This document shows, in pieces, positions 9,606 through 27,340 of a stretch of DNA of 47,985 bases. Below the pieces are notes generated by a model that ran no database searches, was not told the origin of the DNA, and saw only the letters and a program-made list of their open reading frames with translations. The position numbers were made by a program, and so were the translations under genes. The stretch is taken from NCBI GenBank assembly GCA_026387085.1, contig JAPLMK010000093.1:1-47985 (forward strand). The letters are read 5' to 3'. How positions within the stretch are numbered: the first letter of the stretch is position 1; each line of letters opens with the position of its first letter. The DNA is from Candidatus Omnitrophota bacterium. GTDB lineage: Bacteria; Ratteibacteria; UBA8468; MWAK01.

Positions 9606-10025
9606 ATGGCCAGAATAATCGGTGTGGAGATTCCAAACGCTAAAAGGGTAGAGGCCGGGCTCACCTATATTTACGGTATCGGTGTGAATTTAGCCCGCCG
9701 TTTATTGAAAGAAACTAACATTGATGCGGATATCCGGGTAAAGGACCTTACGGAAGACCACATTAACCGCCTGACGATGGCGATTCAGAAAAGTTACCGG
9801 GTTGAAGGTGATTTGCGTCGCGAAGAAACGGCTAATACGAAACGGCTGATTGAAATCGGCTGTTATCGCGGAATCCGGCACAAGCGCGGTTTACCTGTCC
9901 GGGGACAGAGGACGCACACCAACGCCCGAACCCGCAAGGGTCCCCGAAAGACGGTTTCAACCATCCGCAGCAAGGAGAAGCGGAGTGATGCAAAGTCCAA
10001 GGGACCGGAAACCAAGAAGAAATAG
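9606..10025 (+). CDS. rpsM: 30S ribosomal protein S13 (basic C-terminal extension)
   Basis: MARI.GV.IP..K.V...LTYIYGIG N-terminus and [20 protein letters not shown]. Confidence 0.94.
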
Positions 10026-10040
10026 AGAGGGCAAAAGCGC

Positions 10041-10427
10041 ATGGGTAAAAAGTACGAAAAGAAAAAGAAAAAGAGCACCGCTCCTTCCGGGGGTATTGCC
10101 CACGTGAAGGCGACGTTTAACAATACTTTTGTCACCATAACGGACGACAAAGGCAATGTTCTGGTTCAGGCAAGCAGCGGCCAGGTTGGTTTTAAGGGGA
10201 CCCGCAAGGGTACGCCGTACGCTGCCGGACTGGTTGCCCGGGAAGTGGCGCGCCGCGCCCAGGACCTGGGAGTCAGGGAAGTGGAAGTGCGGGTAAAAGG
10301 ACCGGGTCCGGGTCGGGAAACGGCTATCCGTTCCCTTCAGTCAGCCGGGCTGATGGTAACCCAGATTCACGACATGTCTCCGATTCCCCATAACGGCTGT
10401 CGGCCGCCTAAAGAGCGCCGGGTCTAA
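10041..10427 (+). CDS. rpsK: 30S ribosomal protein S11
   Basis: G.AH..ATFNNT.VTITD..GN and [15 protein letters not shown] motifs. Confidence 0.94.
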
Positions 10428-10501
10428 GAAAAGCATACGGTAGACAGTAGACGAGTATACAGGGGAACAGAAAAACAGTAAGGAAGCATACAGGGAAAAC
10501 T

Positions 10502-11128
10502 ATGAAGACAAGAGCACCGGTGTGTAAGATTTGTCGTCGCGAAGATACGAAATTATTTTTAAAAGGGCAACGATGCTTAACGGCGAAATGCGCTATCGAT
10601 AAAGGAAGACCGGCGCCCTCCGGAAACAGTAGATTTTCCAGTCCGAACTCCACCTATCGCCTCCAATTAAGGGAAAAGGAAAAGGTTCGTTCTTTCTACG
10701 GTGTTCTGGAGAGACAATTTCGGCGTTATTTTGCTATGGCTCAGAAAAGCGGTCAGGCCCCCGGAGAAAAATTACTTATTTTTCTGGAACGGCGGCTCGA
10801 TAACGCTTTGGTTGTTTCCGGCCTGTTACCATCCAGACGCGCTGCCCGGCAGTTGGTTGGCAGCGGTCACATTAAGGTGAACGGACGCCGCATGAGCATA
10901 CCATCTTATCTGGTTGCTAACGGAGATGAAGTGGAATTCCGGCCCGCTTCCCGGGTTTTACCGAAAATGAAAGAAATGATTTTGGCCGGCGGTGTGGTAA
11001 AACAGTGCCCGGCCTGGTTGAATTTGGATAAGGAAGCGGTTAAAATTAAAGTTCTGCGGGAACCCTCCCGGAGTGAAGTTTCTGTCCTGGTGGAAGAGGG
11101 TCACATCGTCAACCTTTACTCGCGGTAG
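10502..11128 (+). CDS. rpsD: 30S ribosomal protein S4 (zinc-finger form)
   Basis: CKICRRE..KLFLKG.RC...KC N-terminus, YG.LE.QFR.Y and an S4 domain RLD......G...SR..ARQLV.HGHI.VNG. Confidence 0.93.
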   Translation: MKTRAPVCKICRREDTKLFLKGQRCLTAKCAIDKGRPAPSGNSRFSSPNSTYRLQLREKEKVRSFYGVLERQFRRYFAMAQKSGQAPGEKLLIFLERRLDNALVVSGLLPSRRAARQLVGSGHIKVNGRRMSIPSYLVANGDEVEFRPASRVLPKMKEMILAGGVVKQCPAWLNLDKEAVKIKVLREPSRSEVSVLVEEGHIVNLYSR

Positions 11129-11209
11129 AAAAAATGTAGTGCGGCCCCCGCTGTGCCAAAAACTGGCTTCGCGGATAAACTTGACGGGTCGCCCCAATTG
11201 AGGCTAATT

Positions 11210-12025
11210 ATGGAGCAATTTAAATATCCGACAAAGATTGACTGGGAACAGGATACATACCGGGAGACCTACGGCAAGGCCGTTGTAGCTCCGCTGGAAC
11301 GTGGTTTTGCCATTACGGTTGGAAATTGCCTGCGCCGCGTTCTGCTTTCGGCAATTCCCGGCGTAGCGATTACCAGCGTTAAGATTGATGGTGTTGCCCA
11401 TGAATTTTCGACAATTCCCGGCGTAAAAGAAGATGTCACCGATATTGTTTTGAACCTGAAACAGGTAAATCTTAAGGCCAACATTACCGGTCTTCCTAAG
11501 AAATTTTCCGTGATGATCGAAAAAAAGACAGAACTTCTGGCCGGTGATTTGTTTGCCGATGCGGAAATTAGCGTTGAGAATATCGCCACCCTGTCCGAAG
11601 GCGCTAAGTTGAACTTGGAGCTGACGGTCAGCCAGGGGTTTGGTTACGTGCCGGTCGGACGGATAGTCGAGGAAGGGGTGCCCATAACTACTATTCCCCT
11701 GGCGGCTTCGTTTAGTCCGATTACCCGGGTTTCCTACCGGATTGAGAATACGCGGGTGGGACAGCGGGTTGATTACGAAAGATTATTGCTGGAAGTTTGG
11801 ACAACCGGCGCGATTACGCCGAAGGATGCGGTAAAACAGGCTACCGAGATTTTGAATAAGCACCTTAACTTGATTGCCGGTGAGGAGGCCGAAGAAATAA
11901 AGGCAGTAAAAGAATCTCCGGTGAAGGATGTTGTTACGGGAAAAACCATAAGCAAGAAGATTCCTCCCGCAAAACCAAAGAAAAAATTAAAGAAAAATGA
12001 GACATCAAAGAAGAAAAAGGGTTAA
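11210..12025 (+). CDS. rpoA: DNA-directed RNA polymerase alpha subunit, N-terminal domain only, with a Lys-rich tail
   Basis: YGKAVVAPLERGFAITVGNCLRRVLLSAIPG is the alpha-NTD signature. ATG 11210 with GAGG about 7 nt upstream is preferred over 11153. No alpha-CTD motif is seen before the stop. Confidence 0.88.
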   Translation: MEQFKYPTKIDWEQDTYRETYGKAVVAPLERGFAITVGNCLRRVLLSAIPGVAITSVKIDGVAHEFSTIPGVKEDVTDIVLNLKQVNLKANITGLPKKFSVMIEKKTELLAGDLFADAEISVENIATLSEGAKLNLELTVSQGFGYVPVGRIVEEGVPITTIPLAASFSPITRVSYRIENTRVGQRVDYERLLLEVWTTGAITPKDAVKQATEILNKHLNLIAGEEAEEIKAVKESPVKDVVTGKTISKKIPPAKPKKKLKKNETSKKKKG

Positions 12026-12347
12026 TTTAAATCGCGGCCGCCGGTCCGGAGTCTTCAATTCGTTACTTAAGGGGTTGATTATTCACGGAAAAGTCAAAGC
12101 TTCTACGGCCCGTGTCAAGCAGATACAGATTGTGGCGGAAAAGATGATTACTATGGCTAAGGAAGATTCGGTGGCGAGCCGGCGCCGGATTTTTGCTTAC
12201 CTGCAAGACGAAACCATGGTGAAGAAAGTGGTGTCAGAAATCGCCCCGCGTTACCAGGGCCGCAACGGCGGCTATACTCAATTGTTTAAGCTCGGTCCCC
12301 GACAGGGCGACGGATGTGAACTTTCCCAGTTAACCTTCCTGCCATAA
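11997..12347 (+). CDS. rplQ: 50S ribosomal protein L17
   Basis: MRHQRR..... start, A...K.....AEKMITMAK and GGYT...KLGPR.GD motifs. Overlaps the rpoA tail by 29 nt. Confidence 0.92.
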   Translation: MRHQRRKRVNLNRGRRSGVFNSLLKGLIIHGKVKASTARVKQIQIVAEKMITMAKEDSVASRRRIFAYLQDETMVKKVVSEIAPRYQGRNGGYTQLFKLGPRQGDGCELSQLTFLP

Positions 12348-12423
12348 TAAAGGCGGTAAATAGTGAACGGCGAACGGTTAAGCGATTGATTACCGCCACT
12401 TTGCTGCCGATAATCGCTAAGAC

Positions 12424-13803
12424 ATGCCCAAAAGCGAAACACTTGATTTTTTAAAAGAGCATAACCAGCACCGTATTATTCAGCATTACCAGCGTCTCAG
12501 TCCGGACAAGCAGGATCTCTTTCGGAGAAATCTGGAGGGGCTGGATTTGCCGCTGGTTTTTAAACTGCACCGGGAATTTTCCGGAAAAGAAACCCCGGCA
12601 CACCTTCCCCGTGATATTCAACCGGCCCCAATCATTACCGTACCGGCAACACCATCCGAATTGTCCTTTCAGGAAAAAGCTTGCGCGCAAGGAGAAGCGC
12701 TTCTTCGTGAGAACAGGGTTGCTGTCCTTGTCGTCGCCGGCGGCCAGGGTTCCCGGCTCGGCTTTAATGGTGCCGAGGGCGCTTTTCTTGTTTCTCCGGT
12801 TAAAAAAAAATCACTCTTCCAACTATTTTCCGAGACAGTTTTAGCTTTAAATCACCGGTACCGGACGGCTATTCCCCTTCTGGTTATGACCAGCATGGAG
12901 AATGACCGGGCGGTTAAAGATTTTTTTCAGGCACATAATTTTTTTGGACTTGATTCCGGCGCGGTCCTCTTTTTTACGCAGGAGATGCTGCCTACGATTA
13001 CGGCGGACGGTAGTTTGATTTTAAAAGACGAAACCCACCTTTTTGCTCACCCCGACGGGCACGGCGGCTCCCTTAAGGCGCTTCATAAATCCGGCCTTCT
13101 TTCCGAGTTAATCCGGGGCGGTTTCTCCGAACTTTTTTACTTCCAGGTTGATAATCCGCTGGTGAAGATAGCCGACCCGGTTTTCTTGGGATATCACCGG
13201 ATGGCGGAATCTGAATTTTCACTCAAGGTTTTACGGCGCCGCAATGCGGCCGAAAAGATCGGTCTTTATGCTCTGATAAACGGAAAACCGGGCGTAATTG
13301 AATATAGTGACCTGGTCCCGGGAAGCGAGTGCCTGTCCGAAGGGGAAGGCGCTCGTTTTTGGGCCGGAAGTATCGCCATTCATATTCTGGCCCTATCTTT
13401 TGTGGAACGTTTGAACCGGCAAGGATTCATCCTGCCCTATCATCGGGCGGTCAAGATTACGGAAGCGCCCGGCCCGGGCGGAAGAGTGGAGAAGGCAACC
13501 GTCTGGAAGTTTGAAACATTTGTTTTTGACGGGCTGTTGCTGGCCGACAGGACCTGTTGCGTGGAAACACTCCGGGCGGAAGAGTTTGCCCCGGTTAAGA
13601 ACCGGCAGGGGGAAGATTCCGCCGGTACCGCCGCCCAGGCGATTTCGGCTCGGGCCCGGCAATGGTTGGTTGAAGCCGGAAGCTCGGTGGCTTTTGATGT
13701 GCCGGTTGAAATAAGCCCGCGCTATGCCCTGGATAAAGAGGAACTTGCCGTAAAGCTGAAAGGGAAGTTGATGGCAATCAAAGAAGGCGCTTATCTGGAA
13801 TAA
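12424..13803 (+). CDS. UDP-sugar / UDP-N-acetylhexosamine pyrophosphorylase, UDPGP (UAP1-like) family
   Basis: VVAGGQGSRLGFNGAEG nucleotide-binding loop, HPDGHGG and FQVDNPL motifs typical of the UDPGP family. Confidence 0.75.
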   Translation: MPKSETLDFLKEHNQHRIIQHYQRLSPDKQDLFRRNLEGLDLPLVFKLHREFSGKETPAHLPRDIQPAPIITVPATPSELSFQEKACAQGEALLRENRVAVLVVAGGQGSRLGFNGAEGAFLVSPVKKKSLFQLFSETVLALNHRYRTAIPLLVMTSMENDRAVKDFFQAHNFFGLDSGAVLFFTQEMLPTITADGSLILKDETHLFAHPDGHGGSLKALHKSGLLSELIRGGFSELFYFQVDNPLVKIADPVFLGYHRMAESEFSLKVLRRRNAAEKIGLYALINGKPGVIEYSDLVPGSECLSEGEGARFWAGSIAIHILALSFVERLNRQGFILPYHRAVKITEAPGPGGRVEKATVWKFETFVFDGLLLADRTCCVETLRAEEFAPVKNRQGEDSAGTAAQAISARARQWLVEAGSSVAFDVPVEISPRYALDKEELAVKLKGKLMAIKEGAYLE

Positions 13804-13820
13804 GCAGTTCTGGTTTTGTT

Positions 13821-13850
13821 TTGACTTAAACTCTCTATTTTTAGTAAAAT
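13821..13850 (+). promoter_or_regulatory. Candidate sigma70-type promoter for the tolQ-like operon
   Basis: TTGACT (13821-13826), 18-nt spacer, TAAAAT (13845-13850), 47 nt before the ATG at 13898. Confidence 0.4.
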
Positions 13851-13897
13851 AATAACGGCACGCAATGGTTTTGTATTTAACCGGAGAGAAATAAAAA

Positions 13898-14506
13898 ATG
13901 GATATCAGATGGCTCTTATCATTCAAGATGACCGGTTGGTTTTGCGGCGGCGTAATTGCTGTTTTGGCCGTGTTGTCCATCCTTTCCTGGTCGCTTATTT
14001 TTCAGAAAATGGCTGCTTTTCGTCGGGCGCGCCGCGCCAATTCCCGTTTCCGTTTAATGTCTGATACGGAAATATCAGAAAAGTACGCCGGTTTTTTTGT
14101 TCATTCCTGTCTTTACCTGATTTCCTGGAAGGTAAATCAGTTTCCGGTCATCGATGGAAGTAATATTGTGAAATTAGAAGAGGAACTCAAGATTGAATTA
14201 AACGAATATTTTGAGAAGTTAAGCAGCGGGCTTCCCATTCTTGGCAGTATTACCAGCGTGGCTCCTTTTGTCGGTTTGCTGGGCACGGTTTGGGGTATTA
14301 TGGTTATTTTTGCGCGGTTGCACGGTCAGGTGGCCGGTGTTTCGGAGATGGTGGCTCCGGGCGTGGCTCAGGCGCTTATTGCCACCGTAGCCGGTTTGAT
14401 AACAGCCATCCCGGCGCTTTTTTTCTATAATTATTTTACGATGATTTTGCGGAGTCTTTCCAGCGAAGCGGATACTTACGCCAGCCGTCTTATTTCCCGG
14501 AAATGA
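13898..14506 (+). CDS. MotA/TolQ/ExbB-family proton channel protein
   Basis: 3 TM helices. The C-terminal LGTVWGIM.IF......G........GVAQALIATVAGL..AIPA..FYNYF motif is typical of TolQ/ExbB. Confidence 0.88.
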   Translation: MDIRWLLSFKMTGWFCGGVIAVLAVLSILSWSLIFQKMAAFRRARRANSRFRLMSDTEISEKYAGFFVHSCLYLISWKVNQFPVIDGSNIVKLEEELKIELNEYFEKLSSGLPILGSITSVAPFVGLLGTVWGIMVIFARLHGQVAGVSEMVAPGVAQALIATVAGLITAIPALFFYNYFTMILRSLSSEADTYASRLISRK

Positions 14507-16122: not shown

Positions 16123-17097
16123 TTATCTTGCGTTCTTAACACACCGGAATCCCAGATTTGGCGAGGGCATCGTCCCCTTGAATTGCGCGAAAGAGGAAAG
16201 GCCCTCTGCGCCGTCTTCGAAAGAGCCGCCTTTTACCACCTTCCACCGCTGGCTGCCGGAACTGTAAGGAGTAGATGTCCATTCCCGGACGTTTCCGGCC
16301 AGGTCAAATACGCCAAAAGGGCTGCGGTCGTAGGGGAAGCTTCCTACCGACGCCGTGCTTCCTTTACCCTGGTTACCGTTGGCGGAATTCGGATTATAAT
16401 CATTTCCCCAGGGGAACATAAATCCTTCGTTGCCCCGGTTGGCTCGTTCCCATTCTTCTTTGGTCGGCAATCTTTTTTCCACCCATTTAGCATAATCTTC
16501 CGCATCCTGGTAAGAGACGTTGACAACCGGGTGGTCGGCTAAATCAGTAGGGTAGTTTCCGTTTTGCCAGATGTTGTATTTCAGACCCCGGGGGTCAGCC
16601 GGGGGCTTGTGCCCGGTTGCCCGGACAAAATCAGCATATTGTTGATTGGTAACTTCATGGATATCGATGGAAAAAGCAGAAACGTTGACTTTAACCGGCG
16701 TTCCGTTTTCATTCCAGCCCGCGATGTAATCTCCGGCCGGCACCAGAACCATATTTGCCGCGAAAGTTGAAGCCGGTGTTCCGCTTTGAGGCGTTCCGCC
16801 GGAAGACGCGGAACCGCCGCCGCTGATACCCGGTAATGCCAGCCCCGGGCTCGGACGCGGATAGGAAAGCCCGCCTTCTTCATTATTGCTGTTGGAAGTG
16901 GCAGAAACCCGGCCTAACCCCTGCGTTTTTTTGGCGATGTTCCTGGCAATCATTATGATGCCGATGATAACGGCCAGGAAGATTACGATTAAAAAGAAGG
17001 ATGTAATTGCGCGGGACACGGCGTTCTGTTTTTCTGAAGGGACCGCTATTTTTGTAACTTCGGCCGCGTCTTCTTCCGAAAGCAGGATGTGTGGCAT
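16123..17097 (-). CDS. Membrane-anchored FGE-sulfatase (SUMF1) domain protein
   Basis: N-terminal TM helix and Gly/Ser-rich linker. M.LVPAG....G, HEVTN.QY..FV.ATGH, HPVVNVS..DA..YAKW...RLPTE.EWE.A, WGN, D.AGNV.EW and GGS motifs are typical of PF03781. Confidence 0.8.
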   Translation of the reverse strand: MPHILLSEEDAAEVTKIAVPSEKQNAVSRAITSFFLIVIFLAVIIGIIMIARNIAKKTQGLGRVSATSNSNNEEGGLSYPRPSPGLALPGISGGGSASSGGTPQSGTPASTFAANMVLVPAGDYIAGWNENGTPVKVNVSAFSIDIHEVTNQQYADFVRATGHKPPADPRGLKYNIWQNGNYPTDLADHPVVNVSYQDAEDYAKWVEKRLPTKEEWERANRGNEGFMFPWGNDYNPNSANGNQGKGSTASVGSFPYDRSPFGVFDLAGNVREWTSTPYSSGSQRWKVVKGGSFEDGAEGLSSFAQFKGTMPSPNLGFRCVKNAR

Positions 17098-17251
17098 ATT
17101 TTTTTATTCCAATTTTTTTCGAATATTATCCTAACGATTAAAATATATTATATCTTAAAAATAAGCAAAAAGCAAAGGCAAGGGGCGTTAAGAATCGTGT
17201 GATATCAGAAATTTGATTTTCCTGCTTGTTAAATTGTAAAATAAAGCAGTT

Positions 17252-18706
17252 ATGGCAGAAAAAGAACTGCTTCAAGAGCGGGAAGAGAAACTGAACGCGA
17301 TTATTGAGCGCGGCGTATCTCCTTACGGTGGTCGCTTTGACCGGAGCATTACGGCTCGGGAAGTAGCGGATGGCGCCGGAGATGTTCGGCTTGCCGGCAG
17401 GATTGTGACGATGCGCAATCACGGAAAGGCCGCCTTTGCGGATTTAGAGGACCTTTCCGGCCGCATCCAACTTTACCTTCAGCAGGACCTCCTCGGTTCT
17501 GTATTTGACCTGTACCAGTTACTGGATATCGGCGATATCGTCGGTATATCCGGAGAACCATTCCGCACCAGAACCGGCCAGTTGACCGTCAAGGTTAAGG
17601 AATTGACGCTCCTTTCCAAGTCAAGCCGTCCCCTTCCGGAAAAATGGCACGGCCTGAAGGATGTCGAAACCAGGTTTAGGCAGCGGTATCTTGATTTGAT
17701 TTCCAACCCGGAAGTGCGGGAAGTTTTTGTCGCCCGCAGTCTCATTGTCAGCCATATCCGGCAACGCCTGAACGCGGAAGGTTTTCTGGAGGTGGAAACG
17801 CCGATGATGCACCCGATTGCGGGTGGAGCGGAGGCCAGACCGTTTGTTACCCACCATAATACTCTGGATATGGAACTTTATCTGCGTATCGCCCCGGAAT
17901 TATATCTGAAACGGCTTTTGGTCGGCGGTTTGGAAAAAGTTTACGAGATAAACCGTTCGTTTCGCAACGAAGGCATTTCACCGCTTCACAATCCGGAGTT
18001 TACCATGCTGGAGCTTTATCTGGCATACGCTGATTACAACCGGATGGCGGAAGTTGCCGAAGGCCTGATTTTGCATTTACTGGAGACCAACATTCCCGGC
18101 GTGAACCGTCTGGGGAATAAGGTGAATTATCAGGGGGCAGAAGTTGATATGTCTCCTCCCTGGCGCCGGGCGACTTTATCCGACCTGATGAAAGAATATG
18201 CCGGTATCAGCGATTTGCGGGACCGGGCAAAATTGCTTGCTTGTCTTCAAAAAGAAGGGGCGCCGTGTACCGGAACGGAAACGGTTTTCGATCTGCTGGA
18301 TACTCTTTTTAAATTAAAAGTTCAGCCGAAACTGGTATCGCCTGTTTTTGTGATGGATTATCCCCGGGAGATTTCGCCTTTGGCGAAGAGCAAGCCGGAG
18401 GACGCCGAGACGGTTGAACGGTTTGAACTTTTTATCGCCGGGATGGAAATCGGCAACGCTTACTCGGAATTGAACGACCCGAAGGAACAGCATCGCCGTT
18501 TCGCGGAAGAAGTTAAGCATAACCGCCCGGACCGTTCCAAGTCAGTGGATGAAGATTATATTCTCGCTCTTTCTTACGGAATGCCGCCGGCCGGCGGCCT
18601 GGGTATCGGCATTGACCGTCTGGTGATGTTCTTGACGAATCAGCCCTCCATCCGCGAAGTAATCCTTTTCCCGCTCCTGCGGCCTCAGGCGGTAATTCCC
18701 AAATAA
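17252..18706 (+). CDS. lysS: Lysine--tRNA ligase, class II
   Basis: 484 aa. OB-fold N-terminal domain, EVETPMMH, FRNEG....HNPEFTMLE and GGLGIGIDRLVM class II motifs. Confidence 0.93.
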   Translation: MAEKELLQEREEKLNAIIERGVSPYGGRFDRSITAREVADGAGDVRLAGRIVTMRNHGKAAFADLEDLSGRIQLYLQQDLLGSVFDLYQLLDIGDIVGISGEPFRTRTGQLTVKVKELTLLSKSSRPLPEKWHGLKDVETRFRQRYLDLISNPEVREVFVARSLIVSHIRQRLNAEGFLEVETPMMHPIAGGAEARPFVTHHNTLDMELYLRIAPELYLKRLLVGGLEKVYEINRSFRNEGISPLHNPEFTMLELYLAYADYNRMAEVAEGLILHLLETNIPGVNRLGNKVNYQGAEVDMSPPWRRATLSDLMKEYAGISDLRDRAKLLACLQKEGAPCTGTETVFDLLDTLFKLKVQPKLVSPVFVMDYPREISPLAKSKPEDAETVERFELFIAGMEIGNAYSELNDPKEQHRRFAEEVKHNRPDRSKSVDEDYILALSYGMPPAGGLGIGIDRLVMFLTNQPSIREVILFPLLRPQAVIPK

Positions 18707-18903
18707 TGGAAAAAGAACGAAAAGTAATCTGGCTGGAGAACGCTTTGATTATTATGGCGATTGCCGCCCTGTGGCCGGCTATTTTGCAGTGGCCCGATCG
18801 GGTAACCAAGCCGTTTCTTTACCTGGCGCTGGTTACAATGGCGGTTATTTCCCGGCGCCGGTGGCGCCGGTTGATGAGTATCAAGAAAGATAAAAACCAA
18901 TAA
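18706..18903 (+). CDS. Small two-TM membrane protein, unknown function
   Basis: 65 aa with two hydrophobic helices and a basic tail. Its ATG shares a base with the lysS TAA (TAATG), suggesting translational coupling. Confidence 0.4.
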   Translation: MEKERKVIWLENALIIMAIAALWPAILQWPDRVTKPFLYLALVTMAVISRRRWRRLMSIKKDKNQ

Positions 18904-18966
18904 ATATAGCGCGACCCTTTCCGGGTCGTGGCGGATTAAATGAAACTAAGTTATTTTAAATAGAAT

Positions 18967-19107
18967 ACCACGGAAGCACGGTCGTCAGACTTCGCCGAAC
19001 TCTGGCGAGAAGAATGGAGACACGGAATAAAGCAATTTATAATAAAAAGAACTAACATGAATTAAATCTTTTTTCAGTGCTTCCGCATTTTTCTGTGTTT
19101 CCGTGGT
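18967..19107. repeat. ACCACGGA(A/G)-family inverted repeat pair around an AT-rich centre
   Basis: accacggaagcacgg...ggagacacggaataa on the left, and gtgcttccgcatttttctgtgtttccgtggt on the right, is its approximate reverse complement. Same word family as 15778-15810 and 16040-16075. Confidence 0.7.
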
Positions 19108-19147
19108 AAGGTTGTGTGGTTATTTTCAAGAAAAATAAACTGTTGCA

Positions 19148-19693
19148 ATGAAAAAGGAAATCAGTTCCTGGGCAAAAGTTATTTTTGCCTGCGGTTTGTT
19201 GATTTGGATCGGCCTTTTCACTAATTTCATCATCCGGCCGGGCGAGAACCGTCCAGCCAAGGAACAGGAGAAAAAAGGGGACCTTTTTTTCAATGAAGGC
19301 AAGCCGGAGAAAGCGCTTGCTTGCTGGCGAAGCGCCATAGTATTGGCTCCGAAACAGCGGTCTCCTTACGAAAAGATTTCGGCTTATTATCTCTTGCAGG
19401 GCCAATGGTTGGAGGCGAGGAAGATTACGGAAATCGGTTTGACACAATTGCCGTCATGTGCTAATCTTTACTTTAATTTAGGTTTGAGTTATTATTTTAG
19501 CGGGGACTATCTTCGGGCAAAAGAGAATTTCGGGCGCGTGATAAAACTTGATTCGTATTATCCCGACGCTCATTATTTTTTGGGTCTGATTTATCGCAAA
19601 GAAAACAAGCCGGCGGAAGCGGATAAGGAGTTTATCCGGGAAGTGAACCTGGACCCGACCAGCCGTCGCGCCTGGAAAGAAATCCGAAAATAA
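19148..19693 (+). CDS. Membrane-anchored TPR-repeat protein
   Basis: N-terminal TM helix (VIFACGLLIWIGLFTNFII) followed by 3-4 TPR-like repeats (A...Y..A..L.P, YFNLGLSYYFSGDY..A...F..VI.LD, AHYFLGLIY). Confidence 0.75.
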   Translation: MKKEISSWAKVIFACGLLIWIGLFTNFIIRPGENRPAKEQEKKGDLFFNEGKPEKALACWRSAIVLAPKQRSPYEKISAYYLLQGQWLEARKITEIGLTQLPSCANLYFNLGLSYYFSGDYLRAKENFGRVIKLDSYYPDAHYFLGLIYRKENKPAEADKEFIREVNLDPTSRRAWKEIRK

Positions 19694-19708
19694 ACACTGA
19701 CAATCCTT

Positions 19709-21322
19709 ATGAATATTTTCAAAAGAATTCCGGCCATTTTTCTGTTTTTTGGTTTTCTTCTTTTCTCTTCCGGAGCCGCGCAATCATCGGTTTCGGAAGA
19801 TGTTGCTTATTTTTCTTCCCTGTCTTCGCGGGTACCCGGTTATCCGGGAAATAAGGCGGCCGCCGATTATATTGAGGCGCGTTTCCGGTCGCTCGGCCTG
19901 CAGCAAATTAAGAGGGAAGGTTATCTGGTAACCGTGCCGGTGGAAGAGTCCTCTGTTCTGGAGTGTCAGGGGAAGAAGGTAAAAATCTCGGCGCTCTGGC
20001 CGAATCACGTGCGCACCTCTACCGTGCCGCCGGAAGGAATTACCGGAACCCTGGTTTACGGCGGAGACGGTTCCCTGGTTAATTATTCGGGAAATGACCT
20101 GAAGGGCGCGATTGTTCTCTTGGATTTTAACTGTGGATTTCGCTGGTTGGACGCCGGCTTGCTCGGTGCCCAGGCGGTTATTTTTATTGCGCCGGATGAT
20201 ACGACTTTCTTTGAAGCCCGCCGGAAGTTTTTGAGCATGCCGTTGGACTTACCCCGGTTTTATATCACCCGTCAAGATGCGGATATTTTGCTTTCCGGCC
20301 TGAGCCGCGCCCGAAACACCAAGATGGTAAAACCGGTTCCGGCGAAGCTTTCCTGCCGGCAGAATTGGCAGGCGGCACCGGCCGAAAATATTCTGGGATA
20401 CATTCGCGGCACCGACCCGAAACTGAAAGACGACATTATCTGTCTTTCCGCCTATTACGATTCAATTTCAGTTGTTCCTTCGCTGGCGCCCGGCGCGGAC
20501 CAGGCCAGCAGTATTGCCGGATTTCTTGATCTTGCGGCTTACTTTAGCCAGAATCCTCCCAAGCGGACTATTCTTTTTCTGGCTACCGGCAGTCATTTTC
20601 AGACCCTGCGGGGCATGGGTGATTTTGTTACCAGGCATTACCGCAAAGAAAGAACTTTTTTAACCAAAGACCTGGAGCCGATCAACATCCGGCTTCTGGT
20701 CGGGCTGGAACTTTCCAGCCACTCCGACCTTCTGGCAACCTACTCTAACGGGCTCAGCACTAATTTATACGCTCAGCGTTATTTCGCGCCTTTTGCCAAG
20801 AAATTTCTGGAATATGTTCCGGCTGCTTTTTCCGGTAAACTGCTTAACGGCGTCAGTCCGGAAAAAGGCGTGGCTTTTTCCGCTTTTCTGCCGGAGAGTA
20901 TCAGCACCGACGGTTCCCTTTCTCTTTTGGCCGGACTGCCTTCCCTCTCTTTTGTAACCGTTTATGATAACCGGCGTTATTTTGATACCCCGTTGGATGT
21001 TGCCGCCCGCACGAACAGCGCCAAGTTGGCCGGACAGGTTGAATTACTGCGCCAGCTGTTGAACCGGGCGTTTAATGATTCCGAATTTTTCCCGGAGGGC
21101 GTGCTTGAGTTTAAAGATACGATGCGCACCTTGAAAGGCCGCATCGTCTCTTTTGACCCTAAGGCCGGTTTTGTTCCCAACCAGCCGATAGCAAACGCAA
21201 TTGTTGCCCCCAGGATTCCCCCCACCGTTTCTTATCAAAACCGCAAGAGCGCTTACGGAGTCCGGGGTGAATATTTAGAATTGACTGACGCCAAAGGCCG
21301 GTTACACCCCAATCCCAAATGA
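19709..21322 (+). CDS. Secreted M28-peptidase-fold protein with degenerate metal and catalytic motifs (putative pseudo-peptidase)
   Basis: Signal peptide MNIFKRIPAIFLFFGFLLFSSGAAQS. PA-like insert, then M28-like blocks NILGYIRG, LSAYYDS (usual AHxDS), PGADQASSIAG (usual GA.D[DN]ASG), FLATGSHFQTLRGMGDF (usual ..GEE.GL.GS) and LVGLELS (usual .N.DM.G). Confidence 0.6.
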   Translation: MNIFKRIPAIFLFFGFLLFSSGAAQSSVSEDVAYFSSLSSRVPGYPGNKAAADYIEARFRSLGLQQIKREGYLVTVPVEESSVLECQGKKVKISALWPNHVRTSTVPPEGITGTLVYGGDGSLVNYSGNDLKGAIVLLDFNCGFRWLDAGLLGAQAVIFIAPDDTTFFEARRKFLSMPLDLPRFYITRQDADILLSGLSRARNTKMVKPVPAKLSCRQNWQAAPAENILGYIRGTDPKLKDDIICLSAYYDSISVVPSLAPGADQASSIAGFLDLAAYFSQNPPKRTILFLATGSHFQTLRGMGDFVTRHYRKERTFLTKDLEPINIRLLVGLELSSHSDLLATYSNGLSTNLYAQRYFAPFAKKFLEYVPAAFSGKLLNGVSPEKGVAFSAFLPESISTDGSLSLLAGLPSLSFVTVYDNRRYFDTPLDVAARTNSAKLAGQVELLRQLLNRAFNDSEFFPEGVLEFKDTMRTLKGRIVSFDPKAGFVPNQPIANAIVAPRIPPTVSYQNRKSAYGVRGEYLELTDAKGRLHPNPK

Positions 21323-24087
21323 TGCTGGAGGCCTTTTATCTGAATCCGGAGAGCGGCCGGATTGTGATGGCCCCGGACCGGGGGGTGAACGGCGCGGAAA
21401 ATTACCCGATGATTTTCAAGTTTGATTCACCGGTTAAAGAGTGGTCGACGGTTCTTTTTAACTGTATCAGCACTAATCTCTATGATTTTGTTGACCCCAG
21501 GTATTTAATCGGATTGGATAAGATGGGTGTTTTTAATTCCGCTAATTCTATTCCGCCTGCTTACGGTTTTTCCTACCTGGAGGCGGTAACCAATTTTTGG
21601 AGTTGGTCTTCCGAGGTGGAGCCGGTGGCGGTTGTTTATTCTGAACCGGGCATGGTGATTAAGATTGTCGGAGAAGCCGGCCCCCTGGGCAAAAGAATTC
21701 TGCTTTTAAATTCTCCTGATGGGAAAACCAAAACTAATTCCGAAGGTGTGGGTTACGATGTAACCAGCGATCCGTCTCTGCTCACGCTTACGCCTTACCG
21801 GGCCTGCCGGGACATGATTAACCTCAATGAATATCGAATTTTAAATTTTAAGCAATTCGGTATTTCCAACGACCGGCTGACGATCCTGCACGAAGAGGCA
21901 AAGAAATGGTTTTCCGTCGCATCCGAAAACATGGCCCAGTTTAACTGGTTTTCGTTCCTGACTAACAGCCGGCGGGCGGTGGGTCTGGAGTCCCGGGCCT
22001 ATCCGGATGTGCGGGCCACCACCAATGATGTCATCAAAGGGCTTATTTTCTATTTTGTTATTCTGCTGCCTTTTGCTTTCTTCAGCGAGCGGCTCTTTTT
22101 CGGATTTACCGATATTCGGAAACAGATTGCCGGAATCTTTGCCATGTTTTTATTTGTTTATGCCGCGTTGCGTTTCGTTCATCCCGGTTTCCGTCTGAGC
22201 AGCAGTCCGGAGATTATTTTGCTGGCGTTTATCATTCTTTCCCTGTCCGTCCTGGTTATCTCTTTGGTTGCCGGTAAATTTGAAGAGCAGATGCAGCGCT
22301 TGAAGCGCGAACGGTCCAAGGTCTACGAAACGGACGTGGGACGCATTGCCGCCACCGGGGTGGCTTTTAATCTGGGAATCGCCAACATGAAACGGCGGAA
22401 ACTCCGCACGACTCTTACGGCGATTACGCTGGTGCTGTTGACTTTTACGGTTATTTCCTTTACTTCCATCAAGAGTTTCCTTCGTTTTAATCAGGTGTCC
22501 AAAAGTAATCCGGCCGCTTACGAAGGATTGATGATCCGGGACCGCACCTGGTCTCCGATGGAAGAACCGGGTTACGAATATATTAAGAATGAGTTTTCCG
22601 AGAAAGCGGTTGTGGCGCCCCGTTCCTGGCTGATGAACCCGATCCTCGAAGAGAAGACCTTTATTCGCGTGGCGTGCGGAAAACAGGAGACGTTTGCATT
22701 GGGGTTGCTGGGCGTGACCATTCAGGAACCGCTGATTACCGGTTTTGACCGCTTTCTGGTGGCCGGAAAATGGTTTGAAAATGATACGGAAAACGCGGCT
22801 ATTATTTCGGAAAAGATGGCGAAGAATCTCAACGTTTCTCTTTCGGAGCCGGGCCGGGATGAAATAACGATTTTCGGAGAGGGGATTGTTTCGGATACGA
22901 AACTGGATGATTACAGCGACCTGGATGGCGAGCGGCTGACACCGGTTAATTTTGCGGTTATGCCCAGCCAGGCGATGCAAAAATTCAAGATGGAGCGTAC
23001 TGCCAAGGTGATGGCCGGGGGAGGAAAAACTGAAACATTCACCCACCAGGAAGCGTCTAACGTGGTCATCGTGCCGTTTAATTTCCTGCGCCAGCGCGGA
23101 GGCACTGTCCAGTCAATTGCCGTTAAATTTAAACCCGGTTACGAAACCCGGAAAGAGATTGAAGATTTTGTTTCCCGGCTGGCAGTGACGATATTTGCCG
23201 GAATAGGCGGCAAGACCTCGGTCTATTCGTCCCTGGAGTTGACTTCTTTTTCCGGAATCGGTAATCTTTTTATCCCGATTTTGATTGCCAGCCTGATTGT
23301 TCTCAACACGATGATGGGCGCGGTTTATGAACGTATCCGGGAAATTGGTATTTACAGCAGCGTGGGCTTAGCGCCCAGCCATATTGCCGCTCTTTTCTTT
23401 GCGGAGGCCTGCGTCTATTCGGTTCTGGGCGCGGTAGCCGGTTATCTGCTGGGCCAGGTGGTTACCAAGGTACTGATGGCGGCCGGCCTGCTCAAAGGCC
23501 TGACGCTTAACTATTCCTCTCTTTCGGCTGTCAGTTCGACTATTATTGTTATGGCCGTTGTCTTCCTTTCTACTATTTTTCCGGCTCGGAAGGCTTCACA
23601 GATGTCTGTTCCGGATGTTACGCGAAGATGGGTTTTGCCTAAGCCGGACGGAGATATCTGGTTTTTTGATTTTCCGTTTACGGTCGGAGAAAGCGAAGTT
23701 CTGGGTTTGATGACCTTTTTGCGTAATTATTTTTCATCTTATTCCATTGAGGCGGTCGGTTCTTTTTATACCGCCGACAATAGATTGTTTGAGGAAACCG
23801 GTCCCAAAGGAAAGTCCTACGCGGCTTCCTGCCGCGTCTATCTCTCGCCGTTTGACCTGGGCGTGAGCCAGCAGTTTAAACTTTCGGCGTTTCCGGTAGG
23901 GGAGTTTGGATTTTACGGAATAGAAGTCCGCTTGGAACGGGAAAGCGGGGAGGGGAGTGACTGGCAGCGGTTAAACCGGAGATTTCTGGACAGTATCCGG
24001 AAGCAATTTTTAGTCTGGCGGACCATAAACAAGGAGATTAAACAGGGGTACCGGCAGGAAGGTGAAAAAGAACTGAAGAAGGGGTAA
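21319..24087 (+). CDS. 922-aa FtsX/MacB-type permease-fold membrane protein with unassigned N- and C-terminal domains
   Basis: Residues about 340-400, AFNLGIANMKRRKLRTTLTAITLVLLTFTVISFTSI, match the N-terminal TM1 of the MacB/LolC/FtsX type. A soluble insert of about 260 aa follows. C-terminal FtsX-domain block LIVLNTMMGAVYERIREIGIYSSVGLAPSHIAALFFAEACVYSVLGAVAGYLLG plus two more TMs. There are 3 extra TMs and a leader of about 230 aa upstream. ATGA overlap with the M28-like gene. Confidence 0.65.
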   Translation: MMLEAFYLNPESGRIVMAPDRGVNGAENYPMIFKFDSPVKEWSTVLFNCISTNLYDFVDPRYLIGLDKMGVFNSANSIPPAYGFSYLEAVTNFWSWSSEVEPVAVVYSEPGMVIKIVGEAGPLGKRILLLNSPDGKTKTNSEGVGYDVTSDPSLLTLTPYRACRDMINLNEYRILNFKQFGISNDRLTILHEEAKKWFSVASENMAQFNWFSFLTNSRRAVGLESRAYPDVRATTNDVIKGLIFYFVILLPFAFFSERLFFGFTDIRKQIAGIFAMFLFVYAALRFVHPGFRLSSSPEIILLAFIILSLSVLVISLVAGKFEEQMQRLKRERSKVYETDVGRIAATGVAFNLGIANMKRRKLRTTLTAITLVLLTFTVISFTSIKSFLRFNQVSKSNPAAYEGLMIRDRTWSPMEEPGYEYIKNEFSEKAVVAPRSWLMNPILEEKTFIRVACGKQETFALGLLGVTIQEPLITGFDRFLVAGKWFENDTENAAIISEKMAKNLNVSLSEPGRDEITIFGEGIVSDTKLDDYSDLDGERLTPVNFAVMPSQAMQKFKMERTAKVMAGGGKTETFTHQEASNVVIVPFNFLRQRGGTVQSIAVKFKPGYETRKEIEDFVSRLAVTIFAGIGGKTSVYSSLELTSFSGIGNLFIPILIASLIVLNTMMGAVYERIREIGIYSSVGLAPSHIAALFFAEACVYSVLGAVAGYLLGQVVTKVLMAAGLLKGLTLNYSSLSAVSSTIIVMAVVFLSTIFPARKASQMSVPDVTRRWVLPKPDGDIWFFDFPFTVGESEVLGLMTFLRNYFSSYSIEAVGSFYTADNRLFEETGPKGKSYAASCRVYLSPFDLGVSQQFKLSAFPVGEFGFYGIEVRLERESGEGSDWQRLNRRFLDSIRKQFLVWRTINKEIKQGYRQEGEKELKKG

Positions 24088-24093
24088 TCGTTT

Positions 24094-26052
24094 ATGGATA
24101 AAAAAGAAAATATATCTCCGCAACTGGACGGTTTTGAAAGCGGTTTTAATATCAAAACTCTGCTCGCGGCTCTTTTTGTCGGGTTTATTATGCTTCCGGC
24201 CGGCATTTATATGGGTTTAATCGCCGGAACTTGCCTGGGAGCCGCCGCTCAATGGGTAACGCTCATCCTTTTTGTTGAAGTAGCCAAAAAATCTTTTATT
24301 CAGTTGCGGCGTCAGGAGATTTACCTCATCTTTATTGTGGCCAATTCCCTGATGATGGTGGGCACAGCCGGTATCATGAACGGCGGCGCCTTCAGTTCTT
24401 TAGTTTGGGAACAGTATTTTGTGCAGTCGCCGTACGCCAAGGCCTTTGGGCTGTCCAGCCAGATTCCGCTCTGGGCTGTTCCGCCGGCGGGCAGCGCGGC
24501 GCTTATCCAGCGTACGTTTTTAAGCAAAGTCTGGCTGATGCCGATACTGATTCTCCTGGCAACCCAGATATTGAGCCGGGTGAATGCTTTTACGCTCGGA
24601 TATTATTTTTTCCGGGTAACCAGCGATTTTGAACGGTTGGAATTCCCGATGGCTCCGGTGGCGGCGGAAGGGGTGTGGGCGTTGACCGATCTTTCTGCCA
24701 AAAAAGATACCAACCGCTGGCGCATCTTTGTGACCGGCGGCATGATCGGTATAATTTACGGCGCTTTTTATGTTTTAATTCCTACTTTTACCGGGCTGGT
24801 AATGGCCAAGCCGTTTACGCTTATCCCGATTCCTTTTGTTGATTTTACCAGCCAGATCGGTTCCATCTTTCCGGCTTCAGTTTTGGGTTTTATGACCGAC
24901 CTGGGCAATATTTTTATCGGTTTTGTCCTGCCTTTCTGGGTGGTGCTGGGTACCTTTGTCGGTTCCATCGGGGCACAGACGATTGCTAACCCGATTTTAT
25001 ACAAACATACGACTTTTTTAAAGACCTGGCAGCCGGGAATGGGCGCTATTCCGGCCTATACTTCCACCACGATTGATTTCTGGATAAGCGTTGGAATCGG
25101 CCTGGGCATCGCGGTTTTAATTCTGAGTATTATCTCGGTTACGTTCAAGATGCGCCGGAAAGAAAAGAAGATTAAGACCGCAGTTAAATTACCGGAGAAC
25201 CGGGGTGATTCTTCGCTGGCGGTTATGCTGGGAATCTGGGCTCTTTCCACCCTGGCCTACGTAGGGCTCTGTCATTTTTTGGTTCCTCACTTCCCGTTGT
25301 TACTAATCTTGCTGTTCGGCTTTATCCTGACGCCGGTGCTCACGTATATTTCCGCCCGGATGTTCGGCATAACCGGAGTTGCCACCGGAATTTCCTTTCC
25401 TTATTTGACGGAAGGAACCTATATTCTTTCCGGTTACAAGGGCGCCGATATCTGGTATATGCCTTTGCCCTACTTTAATCACGGCGCCATGACCCAGGGC
25501 TTCAAGCAGATGGAGTTGTTAAAGGTGCGCTTCACGGACTGGTATAAGACGGAATTCATGGCTTTAGGGATAATGCTCTTCTGTAGTTTTCTCTTCTGGT
25601 CGGTTATTTGGAAGATGGGTCCGATTCCTTCTTCCACGTATCCTTTCGTGCAACGGATATGGCCGATGATGGCTATTCCGCGGGCGCTCTGGGTTTCTTC
25701 TACCGTTGCGGGCGGCGCCACCTGGCTGTTGGATTCAATCAAGGGCGCGGTAATCGGCTGGAGCGCGGCCGGAGGCCTGGTTACAGCCGGAATCATGATG
25801 CTCCTTAAAGTACCGATTGCATTTTTCTATGGAATAGTCGGCGGAATCCCGATGTTGCCGCACATGGCTTTTCCGATGTTCTTCGGCGCCCTGTTAGGTA
25901 AATTCTTTTTTGCCCGGCGTATCGGCGTTAAAGAATGGCGGAGCATGACCCCGCTCCTTTTGGCCGGTTATGGTTGCGGCATGGGATTAGCCGGAGCGGC
26001 TTCAGTTGCTGTTGCCCTGATTGCTAACACAGTCTTTCTATTGCTTTATTAA
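24094..26052 (+). CDS. 652-aa polytopic (about 14-16 TM) membrane protein, possibly OPT-superfamily-like transporter
   Basis: Hydrophobic throughout. The N-terminal pattern AGIYMGLIAGTCLGAAAQWVTLILF and the C-terminal LLLAGYGCGMGLAGAASV resemble OPT-family blocks from memory. Not verified. Confidence 0.35.
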   Translation: MDKKENISPQLDGFESGFNIKTLLAALFVGFIMLPAGIYMGLIAGTCLGAAAQWVTLILFVEVAKKSFIQLRRQEIYLIFIVANSLMMVGTAGIMNGGAFSSLVWEQYFVQSPYAKAFGLSSQIPLWAVPPAGSAALIQRTFLSKVWLMPILILLATQILSRVNAFTLGYYFFRVTSDFERLEFPMAPVAAEGVWALTDLSAKKDTNRWRIFVTGGMIGIIYGAFYVLIPTFTGLVMAKPFTLIPIPFVDFTSQIGSIFPASVLGFMTDLGNIFIGFVLPFWVVLGTFVGSIGAQTIANPILYKHTTFLKTWQPGMGAIPAYTSTTIDFWISVGIGLGIAVLILSIISVTFKMRRKEKKIKTAVKLPENRGDSSLAVMLGIWALSTLAYVGLCHFLVPHFPLLLILLFGFILTPVLTYISARMFGITGVATGISFPYLTEGTYILSGYKGADIWYMPLPYFNHGAMTQGFKQMELLKVRFTDWYKTEFMALGIMLFCSFLFWSVIWKMGPIPSSTYPFVQRIWPMMAIPRALWVSSTVAGGATWLLDSIKGAVIGWSAAGGLVTAGIMMLLKVPIAFFYGIVGGIPMLPHMAFPMFFGALLGKFFFARRIGVKEWRSMTPLLLAGYGCGMGLAGAASVAVALIANTVFLLLY

Positions 26053-26800: not shown

Positions 26801-27340
26801 ATGAAGAAAAGAGGTTTTACACTGATTGAATTGTTGGTTGTTATTGCCATTATTGCCATTTTGGCGGCCATGCTTTTGCCGGCGCTCTCTCGGGCGCGGG
26901 AAAGCTCCAGGCGTACCACTTGTCTTAATAATTTAAAACAGTTGGGGCTGGCTATAACGATGTATCTTCAGGATAATAACGAAGGTTTTTTAGGCCGCGA
27001 AATTGCGGTGGATCTCGACCCGTATGTTCCGGATGGGCGTAGTTTTGATTGTCCCAGCGAGAAGAAGAGCGGCACGGATGGTGGTTATGCTATAAACAGC
27101 AACGTGATCGGCCAGAAACTTTCCATAGTGGGCCATCCGTCAACTTTTCCGTTGATTTTTGACCGGAGCATGGTTTCTGGAGTATTTCAGGGTAATGATG
27201 GAGATTCTGGTTTTTATTACGACATTTGCTCTAACCGGCACAGCCAAGGTACCAACTTTCTTTTCCTGGATAGTCACGCAGCCTGGATTTCAAAACCAAA
27301 GGAAGCAGGCAAAAATATTCTGAATTTTGACGTCCAATAA
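26801..27340 (+). CDS. Prepilin-type N-terminal cleavage/methylation domain protein, DUF1559 / H-X9-DG-like
   Basis: [32 protein letters not shown].....C.NNLKQ.GLA N-terminus and a C-terminal [13 protein letters not shown] motif (H-X9-D). Confidence 0.85.

Follow-up and report, generated by a model that had tools for sequence, protein, structure and literature searches.

A giant FtsX-type permease with a degenerate M28 peptidase-like ectodomain and an OPT-fold partner protein in a Candidatus Omnitrophota bacterium and other bacteria

A 47,985-nt contig of a Candidatus Omnitrophota bacterium (JAPLMK010000093.1, assembly GCA_026387085.1; the window hereafter) carries at positions 19148-26052 four co-directional open reading frames (ORFs) on the plus strand, separated by junctions of +15 nt, -4 nt (an ATGA overlap) and +6 nt. 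An earlier interpretation made from the letters alone (the sequence-only reading) described these coordinates correctly and took the ORFs for a tetratricopeptide repeat (TPR) protein, a secreted M28-fold pseudo-peptidase, an FtsX/MacB-type permease and an OPT-like polytopic protein. The second and third ORFs were found instead to be the two parts of one broken gene, and the conserved module has three genes here, not four: those for the TPR protein, a giant protein and the OPT-fold protein. The giant protein runs from a signal peptide through a PA/M28-fold ectodomain, a beta/helical stalk, three transmembrane (TM) helices and an FtsX module to a cytoplasmic domain of about 150 aa, and the module is probably an uncharacterised, widespread variant of ATP-binding cassette (ABC) systems of type VII. 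On balance we consider it probable that the giant protein is a type VII ABC permease whose pseudo-peptidase ectodomain binds a peptide-like ligand, and that the OPT-fold partner moves this ligand.

ORF2 (537 aa, 19709-21322), assigned through Pfam PF04389 and a match to 2ek8, is the 5' part of the giant gene, and ORF3 (922 aa, 21319-24087), assigned through the Pfam FtsX family, is its permease part. Among the best homologues of the 922-aa protein, 111 of 120 were single chains longer than 1400 aa in which PF04389 and PF02687 both occur, including relatives at 85-89% identity (P0002, 1467 aa; P0003, 1471 aa; P0005, 1463 aa), and the lengths of the two window ORFs add up to this size (537 + 922 = 1459 aa). 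Residues 1-533 of P0002 align to 19709-21313 in one frame and residues 529-1467 to 21277-24084 in the adjacent frame. The frame break is located in a length-variable linker at 21296-21325, where the ORF2 frame ends in ...AKGR and the ORF3 frame continues with LEAFYL, and here the window DNA is 22 nt (3n+1) shorter than the loci L001 and L005 and 13 nt shorter than L006. A single added base anywhere between 21302 and 21324 gives a continuous ORF of about 1460 aa with the junction ...AKGR(F)TPQSQMMLEAFYL, compared with ...AKGRFTINQ...LEAFYL in the homologues. The pseudo-peptidase that had been proposed as a separate periplasmic partner is thus the covalent ectodomain of the permease, split by a frameshift.

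A comparable frame break was absent from all 85 related loci surveyed. Two loci, L085 (P0015) and L044, had been candidates for independent natural splits and were rejected, as both are 100-N scaffold gaps. Programmed frameshifting was also rejected since the junction TTA CAC CCC AAT CCC AAA TGA holds no X XXY YYZ slippery site and all 85 related loci do without a frameshift. A real split would be detrimental because the first 237 residues of ORF3 must be external, yet ORF3 alone has no signal peptide; the external placement follows from the three TM helices, the K/R-rich cytoplasmic segment and the four FtsX TM helices that come after it. The window gene is otherwise without further stops and is 82-87% identical to intact relatives, so that the break must be recent or an assembly error, and the window copy is either a recent pseudogene or the product of a one-base assembly error.

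A separate irregularity was noted in rplX (2598-2981), where a perfect 57-bp tandem duplication at 2783-2896 (2.0 copies, 100% identity) repeats 19 residues (LALPGLSYFCLKCNHTTRV) of ribosomal protein L24 beside Cys-x-x-Cys motifs. Either it is a genuine in-frame event, in a gene that is essential, or it arose in assembly; in the latter case the frameshift at about 21302-21324 is likelier to be an artefact too. The duplication serves as a mild warning on assembly quality.

The giant protein begins with a signal peptide (aa 1-24, MNIFKRIPAIFLFFGFLLFSSGAAQS), followed in ORF2 by a PA-type insert and then the M28-fold domain (aa 227-437). In intact homologues the ectodomain is continued by the stretch corresponding to ORF3 aa 1-237 (21319-22029), which AlphaFold2 models as an extracytoplasmic beta-rich domain with a helical hairpin (confidence score pLDDT mostly 80-90). 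The model and the topology then place three extra TM helices at ORF3 aa 238-320 (22030-22278) and after them a K/R-rich cytoplasmic segment with an amphipathic helix, and the motif NMKRRKLRT, quoted in the sequence-only reading, is present at the amphipathic helix/FtsX TM1 region.

The permease module proper (22414-23577) is of the MacB/LolC/FtsX type, as identified from Pfam, sequence matches in the PDB and Foldseek. It consists of TM1 (aa 366-384), a periplasmic core domain of about 260 aa (aa 385-643) and TM2-TM4 (aa 644-753), and hydropathy and K/R distribution agree with the FtsX-permease pattern of TM1 ahead of a three-TM domain with both termini inside. The window ORF3 matched FtsX PF02687 at 1.1e-14 (54.9 bits against a cut-off of 25.5), and its sequence matches in the PDB were YtrF, MacB, LolF and LolC. 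NCBIfam returned only sub-threshold matches to MacB, LolCE, ADOP and FtsX. Foldseek with the AlphaFold2 model (pLDDT 77) retrieved MacB (3.6e-10), LolE (1.4e-8), LolC, Spr0694-0695 and YbbP (4.4e-5), and the alpha/beta insert of about 260 aa matched the periplasmic region of Escherichia coli MacB (5c59; Foldseek probability 1.00, TMt 0.49). PF12704 was found, mostly weakly, in homologues and not in the window copy. A motif directly after TM2, YER.REIG, is invariant in the giant-protein family. The permease architecture, the large insert, the three extra helices and the additional C-terminal domain of the sequence-only reading are therefore all borne out.

The C-terminal domain (23611-24087) is a family-specific cytoplasmic domain of about 150 aa with a beta-alpha-beta5-long alpha order of secondary structure in the AlphaFold2 model. 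It is the signature of the giant-protein family. A search with this domain gave 1432 representative clusters when grouped at 50% identity, 997 of them at E <= 1e-10, and in nearly every full-length match the domain forms the extreme C-terminus of a protein of 1450-3050 aa, shorter matches having the look of fragments. Its fold may tentatively be a START/Bet v 1-like helix-grip; second-tier Foldseek matches to PYL/Bet v 1/START proteins had probabilities of 0.9-0.99 over about 150 residues with E values of 0.01-0.08, in an output that does not report the query range, and since no sequence profile backs it, the assignment is kept as tentative. At E <= 10, Pfam had no match for the ORF2 tail, the ORF3 N-terminal domain, the periplasmic insert or the C-terminal domain, and a profile of the C-terminal domain searched against PDB sequences gave spurious 18-residue matches to designed repeat proteins only. 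The longest members (P0391, P0380 and P0390; 2769-3053 aa) have Big_5 Ig-like domains and over 1000 additional residues before the M28-like domain, which suggests a much extended ectodomain in some lineages.

The signal peptide and M28 layout recognised earlier in ORF2 hold, with Peptidase_M28 PF04389 matched at 3.5e-8 (33.8 bits against a cut-off of 21.3). Of the proteins with a solved structure, 2ek8 and YwaD, aminopeptidases that contain a PA domain, are closest, 2ek8 being matched at 7.9e-9 with the single sequence, in an alignment that spans the PA insert, and at 4e-15 with the profile. Weaker profile matches were obtained to the transferrin receptor (1.9e-4) and nicalin (2.1e-4), both inactive.

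The M28 regions of 111 homologues were aligned to the Vibrio aminopeptidase (AAP) and read column by column; the ligand numbering of the AAP sequence used is consistent, and its region 89-168 agrees with fragments of 1AMP. At the position of the Zn2 ligand His97, Tyr occurs in 81 proteins, Phe in 25 and His in two (Y249 in the window), while the second-shell Asp99 is retained in 108 (D251). The bridging ligand Asp117 is represented by Glu in 54, Asp in 20, Thr in 20 and Ser in 14 (D264). The general base Glu151 is replaced by His in 105 (H296) and the adjacent Zn1 ligand Glu152 by Phe in 67, His in 22 and Tyr in 18 (F297). The Zn2 ligand Asp179 is Asp in 91 and Glu in 15 (E334), and the Zn1 ligand His256 is Asp in 104 (D426). 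The four M28 motifs quoted in the sequence-only reading (SAYYDS, GADQASS, GSHFQTLRG and GLELS) are all present; its claim that every ligand block is substituted goes too far, in that the catalytic Glu has been replaced along with three of the five metal ligands, whereas two acidic ligands (D264 and E334 in the window) are kept. Judged by these columns, a canonical co-catalytic di-zinc site cannot form in the family as a whole. Because the replacement residues are themselves conserved, a selected binding pocket is indicated rather than decay. The closest intact relative, P0002 (L001, 10001-14404), has His at the His97 position (SAHYDS, residue ~249), a single apparent reversion in an otherwise degenerate site.

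Directly downstream, at 24094-26052, lies the gene for the 652-aa polytopic, transporter-like protein. It had no Pfam match, OPT included, at E <= 1, and searches of PDB sequences with the protein and with its family profile found nothing, so that a fold search was needed. Its AlphaFold2 model (pLDDT 85.6, pTM 0.88) retrieved only the barley transporter YS1 (HvYS1, 7wst/7wsr), over the full length, with E = 4e-11 and TM-scores of 0.63-0.68. Seventeen of 32 members of its family match PF03169 OPT (best 6.7e-10), and the NCBI name for relatives is 'OPT/YSL family transporter'. The model thus makes the protein OPT-like at the level of fold and superfamily, where it appears to be a divergent branch of OPT/YSL; the earlier OPT-like label is upheld by the HvYS1 fold and the family members but not by a Pfam match of the window copy itself. 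A second polytopic family, DUF6785, looks from profile comparison to be distantly related to the OPT-like family; hhalign gave the match a probability of 90% and E = 1.9e-6, and the two are collinear along some 200 columns and have an ERL-FP motif in common. The 652-aa protein and a DUF6785 protein showed no significant similarity in pairwise BLAST, the relationship being visible in the profile-profile comparison only. In two fusions, P0439 (2120 aa) and P0501, the FtsX/C-terminal domain part of the giant protein is joined to DUF6785(+DUF6784), and such Rosetta-stone fusions argue that the giant protein and its OPT-superfamily partner act together.

At least 549 giant-gene loci, all of the fused form, were found in species-representative genomes of Omnitrophota, Ratteibacteria, TA06, Latescibacterota, Gemmatimonadota and Armatimonadota. 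Neighbourhoods were compared at 84 loci, which represent 26 lineages when the giant proteins are grouped at 70% identity. The OPT-like gene lies directly 3' of the giant gene in 20 of the 23 lineages with enough flank, and the sequence-only reading of an uncharacterised FtsX-centred envelope module is in this respect strengthened by conserved synteny. A gene for a DUF6785+DUF6784 polytopic protein lies directly 5' in 8 of 20 lineages, and either an OPT-like or a DUF6785 gene adjoins the giant gene at 76 of the 84 loci. A small TPR gene lies directly 5' in 5 of 20 lineages under strict adjacency and in 9 of 26 (33 loci) in a looser survey; its product has about 176 aa and the gene is directly upstream of or overlaps the giant gene. 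Unbiased clustering of the flanking ORFs gave the OPT-like family in 23 lineages, TPR in 9, a LolD-type ATPase in 9, DUF6785 in 8, a short FtsX protein (mini-FtsX) in 7, and a PqqD-like protein and a protein of about 310 aa in 5 each. Essentially all clustered ORFs are on the strand of the giant gene (in the ATPase family, 19 of 20), and no hydrolase gene emerged as a conserved neighbour. A literature search on DUF6785/DUF6784 and on M28-FtsX fusions found no relevant paper.

Some Latescibacterota genomes have two paralogous giant genes (the pairs L029/L042, L034/L050 and L028/L053, and L069). At L069 these are in tandem at 9977-14281 and 16563-20900 with a DUF6785 gene between them, and a single genome may combine a paralogue that has a linked ATPase and OPT-like gene with another that has only DUF6785. 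A gene for a fused S-adenosylmethionine decarboxylase/spermidine synthase was observed directly 3' of the giant gene at 8 loci of 3 lineages (L035, 14398-15696), an arrangement of lineages without a downstream OPT-like gene.

A LolD/MacB/FtsE-type ATPase gene was found within about 5 kb at 16 of the 84 loci, in each case on the strand of the giant gene, and such linkage occurs in 6 of the 18 lineages for which the flanks on both sides reach 6 kb or more. Homologues are therefore sometimes beside an ABC ATPase, not routinely so, and a fusion of the giant protein to an ATPase was never seen. The linked ATPases score about 230 bits against NCBIfam LolD, under the curated cut-off of 307.75, and more than 410 bits on a custom LolD-type hidden Markov model (HMM), compared with less than 140 for other ABC ATPases. 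At ten loci the ATPase gene is directly 3' of a mini-FtsX gene (200-255 aa), and at L078 a tight gene string encodes the giant protein, the OPT-like protein, a 325-aa protein, a PqqD-like protein, mini-FtsX and the ATPase. In Latescibacterota the LolD-type ATPase stands without a permease of its own beside the cluster, from which it is separated by an opposite-strand tRNA-Phe gene. ABC ATPases near L051, L056, L060 and L082 were set aside as unrelated, as they belong to tungstate or sugar importers. A mini-FtsX homology search for a trans-encoded ATPase module gave 7044 matches, none of them traceable to the genomes of close relatives. At L013 the genes for mini-FtsX and the LolD-type ATPase are directly followed, on their own strand, by a GGDEF diguanylate cyclase gene (17736-18839).

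In MacB and LolCDE the region of the YER.REIG motif is the ATPase-contacting coupling helix. We infer that the giant family is ABC-dependent with an ATPase that is often unlinked, and by analogy the two permeases may form a LolC/LolE-like pair where a mini-FtsX is present. The earlier view, drawn from the lack of an ATPase in the window, that the module is not a standard ABC exporter is weakened by the LolD-type ATPases at 16 loci and the invariant motif.

As a type VII ABC (mechanotransmission) system, the module would have the giant protein as its permease. The LolD-type ATPase is in the same gene string in about one third of the lineages, usually with mini-FtsX, the PqqD-like peptide-binding protein and the ~310-aa protein; in the organism of the window it would be encoded elsewhere or have been lost. 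Movement of the FtsX helices, powered by ATP, would shift the pseudo-peptidase ectodomain, which would bind and not cleave a peptide-like ligand, either a free peptide or a cell-wall stem peptide. The ectodomain would be in one complex with the OPT-fold partner, which would carry the ligand across the inner membrane, uptake being the likelier direction, while the TPR protein may be a scaffold specific to Omnitrophota. The PqqD-like proteins and one LysM variant are hints that agree with a peptide or cell-wall ligand.

Several observations weigh against this proposal. No ABC ATPase is encoded in the 48-kb window, as was claimed earlier, the Walker A motifs there belonging to the Clp ATPase only, and searches with HMMs of the accessory components and a phmmer PqqD seed found no mini-FtsX or PqqD-like gene in it. 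The nearest relatives (L001, L002 and L006) likewise have no ATPase, mini-FtsX or PqqD-like gene within 10 kb, and a linked ATPase is missing in 12 of the 18 lineages with sufficient flank. Where an ATPase is linked, it may serve only the adjacent mini-FtsX. The window copy of the giant gene may be wholly non-functional, the conserved replacement residues in the M28-like domain could still support some chemistry, and the START-like assignment of the C-terminal domain is weak. Only minority variants supply the PqqD and LysM hints, and the ligand, the direction of transport and the physical coupling to the OPT-fold protein are all points that we infer.

A bolder proposal, which we regard as rather doubtful at present, is that the FtsX module, the covalent pseudo-aminopeptidase receptor and the OPT-fold secondary transporter form one physical complex, in some organisms even a single polypeptide of 2100 aa, that constitutes an undescribed class of envelope machine. 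Mechanical work, ATP-driven or in most lineages possibly ATPase-independent, would then be coupled to the capture and passage of peptides or cell-wall fragments.

An alternative that we judge unlikely is that the giant FtsX protein works without any ATPase as a static or ligand-gated receptor or scaffold, presenting its pseudo-peptidase ectodomain to the OPT-fold transporter, and that the LolD ATPase and mini-FtsX are a separate small transporter that is functionally associated only. The lack of an ATPase in the window and in the 12 lineages would fit such a protein, as would the placement of the ATPase, where present, usually directly behind its own mini-FtsX and the presence of the family-specific cytoplasmic domain after TM4, where the minor coupling region would lie. 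Orphan FtsX permeases have been described, and the ADOP family (TIGR03434), 'orphan' by definition, is among the weak NCBIfam matches. All 16 LolD-type ATPases are nevertheless on the giant gene's strand, in 6-9 independent lineages; the Latescibacterota ATPase has no permease of its own beside the cluster, and the cytoplasmic YER.REIG motif is invariant.

The giant protein could also be a cell-wall regulator of the FtsEX-EnvC type, with the degenerate hydrolase domain activating or restraining a separate peptidoglycan hydrolase and the OPT-fold proteins recycling peptides, which we hold to be distinctly unlikely. Known type VII systems do control hydrolases (FtsEX-EnvC/PcsB/RipC and YbbAP-TesA; PMC7668044, PMC12646458). 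One long variant of the giant protein has LysM and an NMB0315-like domain I before the M28-like domain, but the LysM domain occurs in this single variant. EnvC has a dead catalytic (LytM) domain and offers a precedent for a non-catalytic regulator. The most conserved partner of the giant protein is nevertheless a transporter-fold protein and not an enzyme, and a hydrolase gene is not a conserved neighbour. Least probable of all is a non-canonical active peptidase with a remodelled Tyr/Asp/His/Asp/Asp site, perhaps mono-metal, that feeds the OPT-fold transporter while FtsX anchors or gates it, for although the conservation of H296, D426 and D251 (105, 104 and 108 of 111), the largely acidic D117/D179 positions and the His of P0002 speak for a functional pocket and not for decay, other residues have taken the place of the general base Glu151 and of three of five metal ligands, 67 of 111 homologues have at position 152 a Phe, which is unable to ligate metal, and next in fold after true aminopeptidases come the transferrin receptor and nicalin, both inactive.

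Read as a type VII ABC permease with a binding ectodomain, the giant protein can be compared with the described machines MacAB, LolCDE, FtsEX-EnvC and YbbAP-TesA (PMC5985334, PMC7668044, PMC12646458). Like MacB, LolCDE, FtsEX and YbbAP it has the 4-TM FtsX fold with a large periplasmic domain between TM1 and TM2, a conserved ER.REIG motif after TM2 and, in some lineages, a linked LolD-type ATPase. Unlike the four it has three extra TM helices, a family-specific cytoplasmic C-terminal domain and a covalent ectodomain of about 770 aa (PA/M28-like plus stalk); most of its lineages lack an adjacent ATPase, and the protein that constantly accompanies it has an OPT fold, instead of being an adaptor, LolA or EnvC. 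The coupling of an FtsX-type permease to a hydrolase-fold extracytoplasmic module recalls YbbAP-TesA and FtsEX-EnvC, and the missing catalytic site recalls EnvC, but the fold is M28, not SGNH or LytM, and it is on the same polypeptide. Nicalin, nicastrin and the transferrin receptor also have a membrane-tethered PA+M28 fold without zinc ligands that is used for binding; those proteins are eukaryotic and single-pass with other membrane partners, and the likeness is one of shared fold only.

The 652-aa protein has the same whole-length fold as the OPT/YSL transporters (TC 2.A.67; YS1, PDB 7wst) but differs from them in having only 14% identity, in falling below Pfam detection and in being obligately syntenic with the giant FtsX protein, and a distant relative, DUF6785/DUF6784, is sometimes fused to the giant protein. 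Like the giant gene, that of ADOP (TIGR03434) is usually an FtsX-domain permease gene without an adjacent ATPase. The NCBIfam match (3.6e-6) is far below the cut-off, ADOP has a pair of FtsX modules but neither a peptidase-like nor an OPT-linked nor a C-terminal domain, and the giant protein is not an ADOP member. New features are the covalent dead-M28 ectodomain, the three extra TM helices, the signature cytoplasmic domain and the near-obligate OPT-fold partner.

The 48-kb window is ordinary chromosome, with a ribosomal-protein operon, secY, adk, map, rpoA, exbB and lysS before the module and a birA-like gene, nadB, trpE/G, dnaJ and clpC after it. The first gene of the module encodes the small TPR protein (181 aa, 19148-19693), for which Pfam TPR_2 (8.7e-18, three stretches) supports the earlier assignment; a single N-terminal TM helix (residues 5-23) is followed by 3-4 TPR repeats predicted outside the membrane. 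The intergenic region before it is 245 nt, and a consensus scan gave there a weak candidate for the operon promoter, a sigma-70-like TGGAGA-17-TATAAT (10/12 match, 19015-19043, plus strand) about 100 nt 5' of the TPR gene. A 65-aa ORF with two hydrophobic segments (MEKERKVIWLENALIIMAIAALWPAILQ...) begins at the lysS stop codon (18707-18903, plus strand), and L001 and L002 have a 76-aa ORF in the same place; the interval from lysS to the TPR gene may encode a small membrane protein that is conserved. Downstream of the module, 26801-27340 (plus strand) encodes a protein with a type IV pilin-like N-terminal methylation motif whose L001 orthologue matches N_methyl and SBP_bac_10, a gene type typical of Planctomycetes-Verrucomicrobia-Chlamydiae (PVC) and Omnitrophota-like genomes that agrees with the taxonomic placement.

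For annotation, the two ORFs of the window should be merged or flagged as a frameshift, and the label 'M28 family peptidase' on proteins of the giant family is misleading. Type VII ABC systems are few, and each of them (MacAB, LolCDE, FtsEX and YbbAP) revealed a distinct envelope process. The giant family is large, with the at least 549 loci, roughly 1000-1400 clusters for its C-terminal domain and a spread over at least five poorly studied phyla. If its components do form one complex, this would be a new coupling of an ATPase's mechanical work with a secondary-transporter fold and a receptor that is a pseudoenzyme, the first link of type VII ABC systems to OPT transporters, and the first functional context for bacterial OPT and DUF6785/DUF6784 proteins.

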